A stretch of 30,986 nt of DNA, taken from positions 1-30,986 of the forward strand of contig CAZFQJ010000001.1 in NCBI GenBank assembly GCA_964520875.1. The letters run 5' to 3'. Made by a program: the position numbers and the translations under genes. Shown here piece after piece: positions 25,759-30,986 of the stretch (the stretch's first letter is position 1; each line of letters starts with the position of its first letter). This DNA comes from an uncultured Lachnospiraceae bacterium (GTDB lineage: Bacteria; Bacillota; Clostridia; Oscillospirales; CAG-272). Under the pieces are notes generated by a model. It searched no databases. It was not told the origin of the DNA and saw only the letters and a program-made list of their open reading frames with translations.

Positions 25759-26721
25759 TTATTTTTCGGAGGCATGATATTTCATGCCCTGCATACTGTT
25801 ACGTCTGAAAAGCTCTTTGTCTATCTCGTTCTGCAAGACGAGCTTTTTGCGGCTCCATAGCGGCGCTATGAGCATATCCTCCGCGCCGTCTCCGGAAACA
25901 CGTTCGATAACGGTCTCGGGCGGCAAAAGTTCAAGCTCGTCGCAAACAAGAGAAACATATTCCTCGCGCTCCATTACCTCGATCTCTCCCCGAGAATACT
26001 GTTTTTCCATTTCCGTACCCTTAAGGATATGCAGAAGGTGTAGCTTTACCGCCCAGGGACGAAGCTCGGCAATCTTCTTAACGGTCGTAAGCATCATGTC
26101 CTTGCTCTCACCCGGAAGACCGTTTATTATATGTACGCAAACGCGCAGTCCCTCCAAAAGCTCACACGCCTTAAGGAAATCCGAATATTCGCAGCATCTG
26201 TTTATACTGCGCGCGGTACTGTCGTGCACCGTTTGAAGTCCAAGCTCCACGAATATCTCATGCCCGCGCGAAAGCTCCTTCAGATACAGAGCCGTTTCGG
26301 CATTTATGCAATCGGGACGGGTGGATATACACAGTCCCGCGCTTTCGGGATAGGAAAGCGCCTCGGAATACAGCTTTTTCAAGGTATCAAGCGGAGCATA
26401 TGTGCCGGTAAACGACTGAAAATACGGTATAAGAGCCGCGTCATTCCACTTTTTACGCATCATTAGCGCTCCGCGCTCTATCTGCTCGGTTATCGAATAT
26501 TCTCTTCCGGCGGCAAACTCTCCGCTACCCTTGCCCGAACAGAATGTACAACCGCCCACTCCCTTGCTTCCGTCGCGGTTCGGACAGGTAAAGCCGCCGT
26601 CAACAGGTATCTTGCACGCCTTACCGCCGAAGATCTGCCGCATGGCATAGTCCATGGTATGATAACGCTTATTGTCGTCGGAATACGGGAAAGGGTTTAT
26701 GCTTTTTTGAGTTATTTTCAT
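25759..26721 (-). CDS. Radical SAM protein, TIGR01212 (YhcC/YtqA) family
   Basis: GFTCPNRDG...GCTFC, YFQSFT, TRPDC, ELGLQT, HIINGLPGE and VKLHLLHILKGT motifs. Confidence 0.9.
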   Translation of the reverse strand: MKITQKSINPFPYSDDNKRYHTMDYAMRQIFGGKACKIPVDGGFTCPNRDGSKGVGGCTFCSGKGSGEFAAGREYSITEQIERGALMMRKKWNDAALIPYFQSFTGTYAPLDTLKKLYSEALSYPESAGLCISTRPDCINAETALYLKELSRGHEIFVELGLQTVHDSTARSINRCCEYSDFLKACELLEGLRVCVHIINGLPGESKDMMLTTVKKIAELRPWAVKLHLLHILKGTEMEKQYSRGEIEVMEREEYVSLVCDELELLPPETVIERVSGDGAEDMLIAPLWSRKKLVLQNEIDKELFRRNSMQGMKYHASEK

Positions 26722-26748
26722 TTTTTCACACCGATATGATATCAAATC

Positions 26749-26796: not shown

Positions 26797-29538
26797 TCAA
26801 AGGTTTATGTTTATGCCGAGTATCGAAGCGAGAGCCTTAAGCTCGTTCTTAAGCTTCTCGCCGTCGCTTGACGCATGCTTACTGCAGTAGTCGGCGCACG
26901 CGTCCTTTATCTCTTCTATTTCGCTTTCGCTTATCTTATGATGACCGTCCTTTTCAAGTCCGAACGGGTCAAATGTCAGATTTTCGCTGTCAAGTATACT
27001 GCGTACCGCCGTGCTCGACATGATAAGCTCCACCATGTCGTCCGCCGTGCAGCCGAGTCTGCCATCTTCACCGAACAATTTGGTTCCGTTTCCGCTCTTG
27101 GCGGTGAGCGCTATATCTATCACGTGCTTTACCGCGCCCGCCTCGGACTCTATACTTTTTTCATCGGCGAACTTTCCTATCTCGGTAAGAAGATCCTTTA
27201 TGAGCGAAGTCGCCGCGTCAAGCTTTTCCTCCGGTATACCCAGATTTCCGAAACGGTTACCCGTTATAAATCCGCTGAGCGCTTCGACGTTGGCTTCGGT
27301 AAGAGAGGATATGAGAGTCTTTGTCAGTTCGATATCTATCGTCAGAGAGCCTTCCTTTGCGATAGACTCAACAAGATCCACTATGCTCGAAACTCCGTTC
27401 ATAAGCTCGCCGTAGGTAAGTCCGTCGGAACCGGAAAGTCCGTCGATTATACCCTGCTTCTCTTCGTCGGTGATTATATCTCCGATCTTCTCGGAATTAA
27501 GGATAGCATTAAACAATTCGTCGGTCTTTTCTTTTCCGAAGCTCTCGGTATTAGAAAGCTTATCAAGAACCTCTCCGACGCCCTTTATAATGTCTCCGGT
27601 CGACGTGGAGGACGAGCCGCCGTCACCGTCATCGGAATCGTTATCATCGTTTCCGCCGAGGAATCCCGAAACAAGTCCCATTATCTGCTCAAGCGCTTCG
27701 GCTTCGTTTTGGATATCCTCTTCGGTGTAATCTCCGTAGTTCGAATTCTCGCCGTTTCCGAAAAGTCCGGATATCGTGGTTACATTAAAATATTCGCCGG
27801 CAGACTGACCGTTTCTGAGTCCGGCAAGCTTTCCGGAATCCTCTCCGTCATCGCCCGAACTGCCGTGTTCTCTTCCGAGCTCCGCCGCGGACGAACCGGA
27901 CGCACCGCCGTTGCCATAGCCGTTTTGGTACTTGTAATACTGATACTCTTTTTCGCCGTCTTCGTCGTTACCGTCGCCGAGCTTTACGAACAACGCTCCG
28001 CCGCCGTAAGCGATATCTCCCGTTCCTTCTTCGCCCGCGGCGTCAAGATGATCGGAATATATCTCAAAGAATTCCGATACGAACGCAGGATCTATCACCA
28101 CTTCCGAATCGCCGAAGTCTTTTACGAGAGCCTCCGCTACCGCGCTGACGTACTCCGCTTTGACATCAAGTCCAACCTTCGTAAATTCGGTCTCAAGCGT
28201 ATCTTCGACTATCGCTATCTTTTCGCTTTCGGAAGCCTCGCCGTTTCTGAGCTCGTTCAGCGTACCCGCGATATTCGAAAGCATTTCCGTGTATACGGCT
28301 TCGTCGTTTTCCGGAATACCCAAGCTCTGAGCAAGTATCTTTACGGAAAGATTGGTAAGCTCGGGAATGAGCACCTTCATTCTGTCGTTGCTTCCGAGTA
28401 TACGGGCAATGTCCGTTATGACTCCCTCTTTCGAGATAGCCTTTACGAGCTGCTCGGTATCTCCCATGGATTTCATAACGTCGGTCGTTATGAGCTTCGA
28501 CATGAGCTTTGTGAGAGTCTGTATGTCCTCATTAAAAGTGCCTGTACCCTTTGAGCCTTCGTAGAGTATATCGATTATCTTATCGAACATGACTCCGGTC
28601 ATCTCGTCGGATTGGGGCTTTTCAACTCCGGCAAACGCTTCCCCATTCTTCCATGCGCCGGTAGCGCCGTGAACAAGCTCCGAAGCGATAAGGGAAACTA
28701 TATCCGAATCCTTTACGGACTCTCCGAGCGCTTCTATCGCTTCCGCTTCCTCTGAGGTGTATTCGCTCGGCTGCTTTCCGGAGATATCCTTAATCTCCGA
28801 AACGAGCTTCAGTATCGCGTCTATCTCGCGATCAAGCTTGACCTTTACCTTTTCACCGCCGTTATCGACCGAATAATCGGTAAACGCGGAGCATACGAGC
28901 TTTCCGCCAGCGGTACGGAAGACCGCGACTGCGGGAGACTTATTTACCGAATCCGCCTGCGCGCTTACCTCCGCAAGGATATCCGAGCTTCCGTCATCGC
29001 TTCCGACGGGAATATTGTCGGTTATCTTCGGGAGTATGGAAAAATACGTGGATATCGGAACGAGAAGCACCGCTACGCATATAGCGCCCTGTACGAGTCC
29101 GTGTATAAGGCACGGAACTCCCTTGAACTTTCTCGTTTTTTCCTTACGGTGTATGACGACGAACAATGCAAGCGTCACGATAAAGTACAGTACCCAAGTC
29201 ACGAGACTCAGCACCGCAAACAATATGAAGAATATCATCGGAGCAAGCAGAGCGCCGCCTGTTTTGAGCACTATCTCTTCGATGACGGGCGAGATCTCGG
29301 CAAGCTCGTTTATAAACTCCATGCCGTTATTGCTCGCGAAATCGTGAAGCGTAGCTCTGAGGCTCTCGTTTGCCACCATGTTCTTTACGACGAGAGTGGC
29401 TATGAAAGCGATCACCGCGGACGCTATCACCGTAAACAATCTGATCCTCGAACGCGTGACCCCTCTTATGCGTGCCCATACCACGCAAACGAGCAGATAC
29501 GCCGCTATTCCGACGGTCAATATCAATCCTGCAGACAT
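26797..29538 (-). CDS. Large hypothetical membrane-anchored protein; CvpA-like N-terminal TM region and acidic helical body
   Basis: 913 aa; GAAAGGA RBS; about four N-terminal hydrophobic helices with an RG motif after TM1; own promoter and terminator. Confidence 0.8.
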   Translation of the reverse strand: MSAGLILTVGIAAYLLVCVVWARIRGVTRSRIRLFTVIASAVIAFIATLVVKNMVANESLRATLHDFASNNGMEFINELAEISPVIEEIVLKTGGALLAPMIFFILFAVLSLVTWVLYFIVTLALFVVIHRKEKTRKFKGVPCLIHGLVQGAICVAVLLVPISTYFSILPKITDNIPVGSDDGSSDILAEVSAQADSVNKSPAVAVFRTAGGKLVCSAFTDYSVDNGGEKVKVKLDREIDAILKLVSEIKDISGKQPSEYTSEEAEAIEALGESVKDSDIVSLIASELVHGATGAWKNGEAFAGVEKPQSDEMTGVMFDKIIDILYEGSKGTGTFNEDIQTLTKLMSKLITTDVMKSMGDTEQLVKAISKEGVITDIARILGSNDRMKVLIPELTNLSVKILAQSLGIPENDEAVYTEMLSNIAGTLNELRNGEASESEKIAIVEDTLETEFTKVGLDVKAEYVSAVAEALVKDFGDSEVVIDPAFVSEFFEIYSDHLDAAGEEGTGDIAYGGGALFVKLGDGNDEDGEKEYQYYKYQNGYGNGGASGSSAAELGREHGSSGDDGEDSGKLAGLRNGQSAGEYFNVTTISGLFGNGENSNYGDYTEEDIQNEAEALEQIMGLVSGFLGGNDDNDSDDGDGGSSSTSTGDIIKGVGEVLDKLSNTESFGKEKTDELFNAILNSEKIGDIITDEEKQGIIDGLSGSDGLTYGELMNGVSSIVDLVESIAKEGSLTIDIELTKTLISSLTEANVEALSGFITGNRFGNLGIPEEKLDAATSLIKDLLTEIGKFADEKSIESEAGAVKHVIDIALTAKSGNGTKLFGEDGRLGCTADDMVELIMSSTAVRSILDSENLTFDPFGLEKDGHHKISESEIEEIKDACADYCSKHASSDGEKLKNELKALASILGININL

Positions 29539-29700
29539 GTTACCATTCCTTTCGTTAAGGACCTGCCATATCGGTCCGATTGTAATAATTGGTTGATCTC
29601 AAAAGCGGATAGCCGGAAAGCGTCAAGATCTCCGGCGTCGTGTATGTATGGTCTCGGAATACCGCGCAAGTCGCACTACGCCGATTTTCCGATTCCGCCT
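29539..29700 (-). ncRNA. Candidate structured 5' leader (unassigned cis-regulatory RNA)
   Basis: About 160-nt UTR with nested stems P1 GCGGA/UCCGC, P2 UCGGAA/UUCCGA and P3 GCCGGAGA/UUUCCGGC. No known family recognised. Confidence 0.5.
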
Positions 29701-29702
29701 TC

Positions 29703-29731
29703 ATTATAACACTTCTCTCATATTTTGTCAA
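29703..29731 (-). promoter_or_regulatory. Consensus sigma-A promoter for the 913-aa gene
   Basis: TTGACA-17 nt-TATAAT, a perfect match. Confidence 0.85.
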
Positions 29732-29838
29732 TATATTTTTGCATTTTTTTGAATGCGGCGACCGATTTCGGAGCGGTTTCGACCGAAAAACGTATGTATT
29801 GCCTTGAAAAAAACTTTTTATTAATTTTCATTTTCGCC

Positions 29839-29867
29839 TTGAAAAAATCCTTACCTTATGCTACAAT
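29839..29867 (+). promoter_or_regulatory. Sigma-A promoter for the MBL-fold gene
   Basis: TTGAAA-17 nt-TACAAT with a TGn extension. Confidence 0.7.
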
Positions 29868-29901
29868 ATATTCAGTTACTTATCGGGAGGTCATTTTTCT
29901 G

Positions 29902-30825
29902 ATGAATGAATTTAAGGAAATAAAACCGAATATCTACCACCTCGTTCCGAGCTCGTCCGATTTCGGAGACGCGGTAACTCTCGTCATCGGAAAAAGCAAC
30001 TTCTTAATAAACTGCGGAGCGCACGACTCATCTGTGACCGACGTGATCGTTCCGGCACTCAAAGCTATCGGACTCGCGCCGAAGGATATAGAATACGCGG
30101 TATTCACGCATTGCTCTATCGAAACGCTCGGCGGTCTGCACAGATTAAAGCAGATAGCTCCGGACATACGAGTGCTCGCCTCGGAGGATCAGATAAGAAA
30201 GATTAAAAACCCCACATATTATATAGCGGAGCTTTGCTCGGTATTTCCCGATAATTCGCCTCCGTTCAGAGAGATAAAGGGCGTTCTTGCCGACGCACGT
30301 ATAAATCCGGACGACGCGATATTCAAGGAGCTGCGCCCGCTCGCTCCGATAAAGAACCAGACCGAACACATATGCTGGTATCACGTCGAAAGCGAGACGC
30401 TCATATGCGGAGACATGGTCCAAGGCGACGGCACGCCGGAGACGGGAGTTGCCTTTTTCAGAGACCTAAGAGAATATCGCGGAACTCTCAAATATCTTTC
30501 CAGCCTTCAGATATCCGCCATGCTGATAAGCCGTAACTATAAAGACGCGTGCGCCGTCACCTACGACCGCACTCTTGATCCGGAAAACGCAGGCGACCCG
30601 AACGCCGTAAACGAATGTCTGCAAGCAATAGAAGCAAGCCTCGAACACGTAAAAGGTTACGTAGCGGCGGTGGAGGAGTATGTAAAGCTCTGCCGAAAAA
30701 AGCACGAGCAGCCGTCCGTCGAAAAATTTACGCCGAGTTATTTCTCGGGCAAAGCCGCTCCGACGTGCCTCGGATACGCTATGCTCACCTTTAATTCTAT
30801 TTTTGAACATTTCGGACATTCATAA
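29902..30825 (+). CDS. Metallo-beta-lactamase fold protein with degenerate metal-binding motifs
   Basis: GGGAGG RBS; FLINCG, VFTHCSIETLGG and LICGD align to MBL motifs 1, 2 and 4. Confidence 0.75.
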   Translation: MNEFKEIKPNIYHLVPSSSDFGDAVTLVIGKSNFLINCGAHDSSVTDVIVPALKAIGLAPKDIEYAVFTHCSIETLGGLHRLKQIAPDIRVLASEDQIRKIKNPTYYIAELCSVFPDNSPPFREIKGVLADARINPDDAIFKELRPLAPIKNQTEHICWYHVESETLICGDMVQGDGTPETGVAFFRDLREYRGTLKYLSSLQISAMLISRNYKDACAVTYDRTLDPENAGDPNAVNECLQAIEASLEHVKGYVAAVEEYVKLCRKKHEQPSVEKFTPSYFSGKAAPTCLGYAMLTFNSIFEHFGHS

Positions 30826-30932: not shown

Positions 30933-30986
30933 GTACCTTTAGCTCAGTTGGTAGAGCAACTGACTCTTAATCAGTGGGTCCAGGGT
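30933..30986 (+). tRNA. tRNA-Lys (anticodon CTT), truncated by the window end
   Basis: GTACCTT-TA-GCTC-AGTTGGTA-GAGC-A-ACTGA-CTCTTAA-TCAGT-GGGTC-CAGGG-T. Confidence 0.93.

Follow-up and report, generated by a model that had tools for sequence, protein, structure and literature searches.

A riboswitch is usually found in many lineages or in front of more than one gene of a pathway, and a 5'-terminal stabiliser hairpin is a stable stem-loop lying within about 4 nt of the 5' end of its transcript. In Bacillus subtilis, the aprE leader mRNA is stabilised by 5' stem-loops in combination with ribosome binding (Hambraeus 2002, as cited in PMC3997798), and for the hbs mRNA, whose 5' UTR is highly structured, stability depends both on RNase access and on a strong SD (PMC5737220). 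The slpA 5' UTLS of Lactobacillus, the long structured leader of an abundant envelope protein, raises expression (Narita 2006, as cited in PMC3666127).

A leader that can be compared with each of these lies on the minus strand of the window (the whole 30,986-nt stretch of DNA analysed here, from an uncultured Lachnospiraceae bacterium, genome G000), between a consensus promoter and the gene for a 913-aa protein. The features of the locus, in the order in which they are read, are:

29703..29731, minus strand: promoter, with -35 TTGACA at 29731-29726, a 17-nt spacer and the extended -10 TGtTATAAT at 29711-29703
29650..29696, minus strand: 5'-terminal long hairpin, with a GG/CC closure (29696-29695 with 29651-29650) and helix P2, UCGGAA/UUCCGA (29692-29687 with 29659-29654); its inner part, in MFE folds, has the stems AUCG/CGGU and CGUAG/UUGCG and the apical loop UGCGAC (29675-29670)
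29640..29649, minus strand: A/C-rich unpaired linker with the UACAUA box at 29648-29643, reading GAUUUACAUAGAU or GAUUUAYAUAUAU in relatives
29612..29636, minus strand: hairpin P3, GCCGGAGA (29636-29629), 9-nt loop UCUUGACGC and UUUCCGGC (29619-29612)
29605..29611, minus strand: 3' flank of P3, UAUCCGC (UAUACGC in relatives), a partly conserved block that holds the 3' arm UCCGC (29609-29605) of helix P1
29559..29577, minus strand: hairpin P4, GGACC (29577-29573), 9-nt loop and GGUCC (29563-29559), ending 1 nt before the ribosome-binding box
29539..29558, minus strand: ribosome-binding box UUAACGAAAGGAAUGGUAAC, which contains the SD AAAGGAA (29552-29546)
26797..29538, minus strand: the controlled gene, an ORF of 913 aa with its ATG at 29538, encoding a protein with TM helices at its N terminus and a long acidic stretch

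Like the stabilisers of the aprE/ermC type, this leader combines a hairpin at or near the predicted 5' end, in which pairing is kept and sequence is free, with a good RBS and a strong promoter; unlike them, it is longer and has two extra conserved hairpins and a conserved unpaired box, and stabilisation is here only proposed. With the slpA UTLS it has in common that a large envelope-associated protein gene is preceded by a long leader, rich in hairpins and driven by a strong promoter, though there is no sequence relation and the gene product is a membrane-anchored acidic protein rather than a known S-layer protein. The hbs 5' UTR, with its coupling of RNase access and the SD, is by its architecture a plausible model for a box flanked by hairpins such as the present one. 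The conservation of a hairpin and of its single-stranded flanks upstream of the RBS is also reminiscent of the H-type pseudoknot riboswitches preQ1 and SAM-II, from which the locus differs in having no cmscan match on the leader, no covarying pseudoknot, no expression platform and only a single gene; the sole SAM-II match (13 bits against a gathering score of 44, E 9.6) lies in the promoter rather than in the leader.

The promoter, detected by promoter scan at 29731-29703, matches the consensus at 12 of 12 positions, so that the perfect TTGACA-17-TATAAT described in the sequence-only reading is confirmed, and it has a TG extension besides; all homologous leaders have the same promoter at a constant distance from the 5' hairpin. 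For the 913-aa protein no match was obtained in Pfam or NCBIfam, and no curated family is assigned. One distant homolog gives a sub-threshold match to Colicin_V/CvpA (27 bits against a cutoff of 29.3), and the atlas neighbours of the protein are Bacillota hypothetical proteins, including one cluster with 10% Colicin_V; this CvpA-like hint gives no clue to a ligand. Gene order is constant among the loci: the leader and the large-protein gene lie between a divergent MBL-fold gene on one side and, on the other, the MnmL/YtqA radical-SAM gene followed by a G5/M23 peptidase. The leader is single-copy within its own 1.6-Mb MAG. Downstream of the large gene, on the same strand, window positions 25759-26745 encode an MnmL/YtqA tRNA-modification radical-SAM protein (equivalog-level match to TIGR01212, 320 bits), which is syntenic in every relative except L095. 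On the other side of the leader, the block GGATTTTTTCAAGGCGAAAATGAAAATTAATAAAAAG (29850-29814, minus-strand reading) is conserved among relatives and overlaps the plus-strand TTGAAA-17-TACAAT promoter (29839-29867) of the divergent MBL-fold gene (29902-30825). A partial tRNA gene (Rfam RF00005, 38 bits) is cut at the window end (30933-30986).

Orthologs of the 913-aa protein are present in 12 of the 12 other species of the genus that were examined; several more genera of the family have them too. Most of these orthologs lie behind a similar consensus promoter followed by a short AT-rich leader unrelated to this one. A near-perfect TTGACA-17-TGnTATAAT precedes nearly all of the large-protein orthologs (loci L034-L051, from the genus and neighbouring genera), and the presence of such promoters in spite of unrelated leaders suggests that the large protein is uniformly highly expressed. 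Homologous leaders number 16, all from orthologous genes (35-78% protein identity), and fall into three subclades: that of the present genome with its closest relative, L087 (71% protein identity); a main group of about nine leaders; and four leaders of the G006 type. They come from genomes G012 and G006, from nine closer homologs (50-71% protein identity) in a large protein collection and from three further short-form loci of the G006 type, and the organisms that bear them are a few uncultured gut Clostridia. The G006-type loci L035, L105, L106 and L107 encode half-length proteins (498-535 aa, with the N-terminal membrane and first acidic domain only), the radical-SAM gene following directly; other homologs have 887-980 aa. 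In L035 the frame is closed by a single stop. The public gene call at L095 (1034 aa) is over-extended, beginning upstream of the promoter and running through the leader (L095:1501-1689); its true start is L095:1687, as the conservation of promoter, leader and ATG shows.

Direct searches found little more. When 61 relatives were searched by blastn with the leader, the matches covered the promoter only, and the G012 leader, used as a query against a sample of 401 family genomes, gave nothing beyond short chance matches and missed G000 and G006 themselves. The search for related loci found no relatives in JGI metagenomes and only G012, G006 and three distant loci in GTDB genomes, while a scan of metagenome contigs for the exact box and P3 pattern gave three matches, all chance ones within unrelated coding sequence. 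Two covariance models, R1 (box and P3) and R2 (5' hairpin and box), were each run over the same 150 genomes, namely G000 and 149 relatives. Credible matches were seen in 3 of the 150, one per genome and always at the large-protein gene, G000 and G012 being found by both models and G006 by R2 only. Weak R1 matches in G009, G010 and G018 were set aside as a hairpin beside another promoter, a hairpin resembling a terminator and a stretch of coding sequence. No Rfam family matches the leader, as cmscan against Rfam 15 makes clear: the whole window has only the partial tRNA (30933-30986) at the gathering threshold, the region 29450-29800 searched with E up to 10 has nothing on the leader structure (its best match reaches 18 bits, where the gathering score is 153), and in six orthologous loci no match falls on the leader.

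The leaders of the main group are 78-85% identical, as against 55-63% identity at the 4-fold degenerate sites of the adjacent gene, and a 17-nt block is identical in the G012 and G006 leaders though their proteins are only 35% identical. That leader identity exceeds that of the 4-fold sites, together with the exact 17-nt block, indicates that the leader is under selection as RNA. More distant orthologs within the same genus have short unrelated leaders, several without a 5' hairpin, and the lack of a homologous leader in distant orthologs implies that the gene family can do without the element. The idea that all orthologs have a 5' hairpin was considered and dropped; only about half of the more distant ones have one.

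In 16 of 16 leaders the 5' hairpin begins 5-8 nt after the -10, and from the promoter we infer a +1 at about 29696 in G000. A homologous hairpin with compensatory changes is found in 13 of 15 relatives. P1', the short closing helix around P2, appears there as GUCC/GGAC, GCC/GGC, GUC/GAC or GGCU/GGUC, and P2 itself as GGGAG/CUCCC, GGAGAU/AUCUCC, CCGC/GCGG, CCUCA/UGAGG or CUGCA/UGCAG, so that the sequence differs among subclades and the pairing is kept. In alignment A5, which was fitted to the covariance model, 78.6% of the cells of this hairpin are paired and 15 cells are changed on both sides; its covariation score there is 0.283 against 0.142 for shuffles (none of 500 as high) and a maximum of 0.213 for slid controls, values that are to be read as coming from a model-fitted alignment and, like all of the covariation statistics given here, from few and related sequences. 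Loci L089 and L090 have cleanly lost about 32 nt (L089:1371-1401, L090:1339-1369), and with them the inner 5' hairpin (P2), but keep a terminal CCC/GGG mini-hairpin; both also lack the CGCA motif that follows P3. A pairing of that CGCA with the P2 loop (UGCG) was considered, the two partners being lost together in L096, L089 and L090, but it is contradicted by L095 and L092 and is retained as a lead only.

The UACAUA box occupies invariant columns (T55-A60) of alignment A2, G000 included, and is unpaired in all MFE folds; the main group reads GAUUUACAUAGAU at this place, and the G006-type leaders conserve the box as UAYAUA. In P3, which follows, 8 of 8 pairs are formed in all ten aligned leaders (100% of cells), the only stem changes among them being A-to-G or C-to-U transitions that keep a sense-strand G-U pair. 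The G006-type P3, CGGGAAA..UCCCG, has its second pair flipped from C-G to G-C. As the substitutions in P3 are G-U-compatible or compensatory, an RNA hairpin on the sense strand is favoured over a DNA palindrome; since it has no U-tract on its 3' side, P3 is not a terminator. L087 carries in the apical loop of P3 a tandem repeat of about 100 nt (L087:1326-1427; 9-nt unit GCTTTCGCA, 11.8 copies), and its P3 stem is retained, with G-U pairs, despite the insertion, so that for the G000 subclade the sequence of the loop is not essential. Two further pairings involving this hairpin were rejected: a lower P3 helix, AGAU/AUCU, which occurs in most main-group leaders, shows zero covariation and is missing in G000, and an anti-SD role for the 3' arm of P3, for which the 5-bp complementarity of YUUUC with GAAAG is conserved and, being invariant, uninformative.

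P4 is predicted in every homolog, with the helices GGACCGA/UCGGUCC, CCGGAA/UUCCGG, CAGGA/UCCUG and CAGGAU/AUCCUG, and among the ten aligned leaders 96% of its cells are paired, with substitutions on both sides. Directly after it, the ribosome-binding box sequence TAACGAAAGG is invariant in alignment A2, the SD-containing box of the whole family being (G/U)UAACGAAAGGAA. The SD window has a mean unpaired probability of 0.43-0.68 in 13 homologous leaders, which is to say that it is about half accessible, with no consistent sequestration; a candidate SD hairpin, CCGU/ACGG, is disrupted in 2-3 of 10 sequences, which show no compensatory change. The sequence-only reading had seen two mutually exclusive stems near the RBS, of which GGACC/GGUCC is the predicted hairpin P4, but AUCGG/CCGAU leaves a 1-nt loop and is unfolded in RNAfold.

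That reading had also proposed a three-way junction in which P1 (GCGGA 29698-29694 with UCCGC 29609-29605) encloses P2 and P3. All three helices are present on the minus strand where it had placed them, and RNAfold of an RNA started at 29700 does give P1, P2 and P3, but only 25% of P1 cells are paired in the ten aligned leaders; the P1 pairing is essentially peculiar to G000, where it arises beside a local CGGAA duplication, and is missing even in L087. Within G000 itself P1 enters the MFE structure only when transcription starts at 29698 or upstream (no more than 5 nt after the -10). From a start at 29697-29694, a range that includes the usual spacing of 7 nt from the -10, the MFE structure swaps P1 for the 2-bp GG/CC closure of P2, which is the architecture of the family. 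Thermodynamically the whole leader (171 nt) folds no better than chance (z = -0.80; 44 of 200 shuffles equally good) and a 105-nt core mildly better (z = -1.85; 8 of 200 shuffles as good). The proposed 8-bp pseudoknot of GAUCUUGA with UUGAGAUC (29602-29595) fares like P1: the complementarity is there, but 36% of its cells are paired, no better than in slid controls. The comparison of ortholog UTRs thus bears out the suggested structure as to covariation in P2 and G-U-compatible or compensatory changes in P3, and not as to P1 and the pseudoknot, neither of which is conserved. The four-codon uORF MAGP (ATGGCAGGTCCTTAA, 29569-29555) is likewise present in G000, but there only, and lacks an SD; the subclades have no uORF in common, the leader indels are not multiples of three, and nothing like the conserved, SD-preceded short ORF expected of a leader peptide or uORF attenuator was found. 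Junction, pseudoknot and uORF being peculiar to G000, the element is, as far as comparative sequence analysis can decide it, not a new riboswitch class. What does hold is the broader suggestion of an undescribed cis-acting leader RNA, in that the region has no Rfam 15 match, is conserved above the level of synonymous sites and has hairpins that covary or vary only within G-U pairing. It is, on the evidence of these alignments, a real, conserved, clade-restricted, hairpin-rich 5' leader.

The explanation that we consider somewhat better than an even bet is that the leader stabilises the mRNA and sets its translation, with the box and P3 acting as a recognition site for a putative factor. A 5' UTR of about 160 nt would lead the mRNA of the large CvpA-like acidic membrane protein, driven by a very strong SigA-type promoter. 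The long hairpin at or near the 5' end of the transcript would protect the mRNA against 5'-end-dependent decay, by analogy with the aprE/ermC type; the unpaired UACAUA box and P3 would be recognised by a trans factor, perhaps an RNA-binding protein, an RNase or an sRNA, any processing of the leader being likewise conjectural; and P4, which abuts the ribosome-binding box with its conserved GUAACGAAAGGAA, would set the initiation of translation. A post-transcriptional leader of this kind fits the architecture -- a strong promoter, a 5' hairpin of free sequence, P4 at a strong RBS and a conserved box beside P3 -- better than a riboswitch does. The stabilising role by itself fails to explain either the conserved unpaired box or the P3 loop conserved in the main group.

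An orphan riboswitch, in which box, P3 and flanks (possibly with the loop of the 5' hairpin) would form a small pseudoknotted aptamer for some metabolite or ion and control translation of the membrane protein, is an unlikely reading, though not without attractions. Conserved unpaired nucleotides do flank a conserved hairpin that no Rfam family matches; the main-group P3 loop has an AUGU complementary to the ACAU of the box; and a C-G to U-G to U-A series links the CRAU just 5' of the box with the P3 loop in L091, L089 and L090, which is anecdotal. The AUCU of the G000 loop, however, breaks ACAU:AUGU, the corresponding loop of L087 holds the 100-nt repeat insertion, the inner 5' hairpin can be deleted, and neither the three-way junction nor the 8-bp pseudoknot is conserved. 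With no terminator and an SD that is not consistently sequestered, a classical expression platform is missing, and with one copy per genome, at a single gene and in 3 of 150 genomes, the locus does not behave as the riboswitch-like element first supposed: what is conserved is a set of separate hairpins, with no covarying multi-helix or pseudoknotted aptamer and no multi-gene or wide recurrence. We give a low probability to the related idea that the UACAUA box, P3 and their flanks form a small sensor (an orphan riboswitch or a protein-bound RNA switch) that uses a tertiary pair between CRAU and the P3 loop and is lineage-specific to the giant CvpA-like envelope proteins.

A similarly low probability attaches to the leader having no specific function, and representing residual shared ancestry or hitch-hiking beside a conserved promoter and start codon. 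Its narrow phyletic spread would agree with this, as would the leader identity of only 52-57% between G000 and the main group and the case of L091 and L096, in which the leaders (78% identical) fall below the synonymous sites (92%); in most pairs, however, the leader is more conserved than the 4-fold sites, and neutrality would also have to account for the 17-nt block kept at 35% protein identity and for the compensatory changes in P1'/P2, P3 and P4. A DNA-level operator, where the P3 inverted repeat and the box would bind a transcription factor and thereby set up a block or roadblock for RNA polymerase downstream of the promoter, is very improbable: P3 is indeed an inverted repeat (8-9-8) of strongly conserved sequence, lying 67-91 bp past the -10, but its substitutions (columns 71-73 and 85-87, in five sequences) keep G-U pairs on the sense strand and break the DNA palindrome, while P4 and P1'/P2 conserve pairing rather than sequence. 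Hardly any credence is left for an independent or 5'-UTR-derived sRNA, about 95 nt long and with its 3' end at the U4 that follows P1, such as the sequence-only reading had suggested on seeing UUUU (29604-29601) after UCCGC. Within 29300-30000 no terminator-like site was detected, and at the leader no GC-rich hairpin is directly followed by a U-tract; P1 is no simple GC hairpin adjoining the U run, both P1 and the U run are missing in relatives, and the leader continues uninterrupted into the conserved ribosome-binding box.

Taken as a stabilising and translation-setting leader, the element opens no new mechanism, and the features that had suggested a riboswitch fail on comparison with relatives; the practical yield is small, namely 16 sequences of a candidate motif missing from Rfam, with two covariance models of it. 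If functional as proposed, it would be one more lineage-restricted structured 5' UTR among bacterial cis-acting RNAs, and it would flag an abundant uncharacterised envelope protein of uncultured gut Clostridia as being strongly, and post-transcriptionally, controlled.
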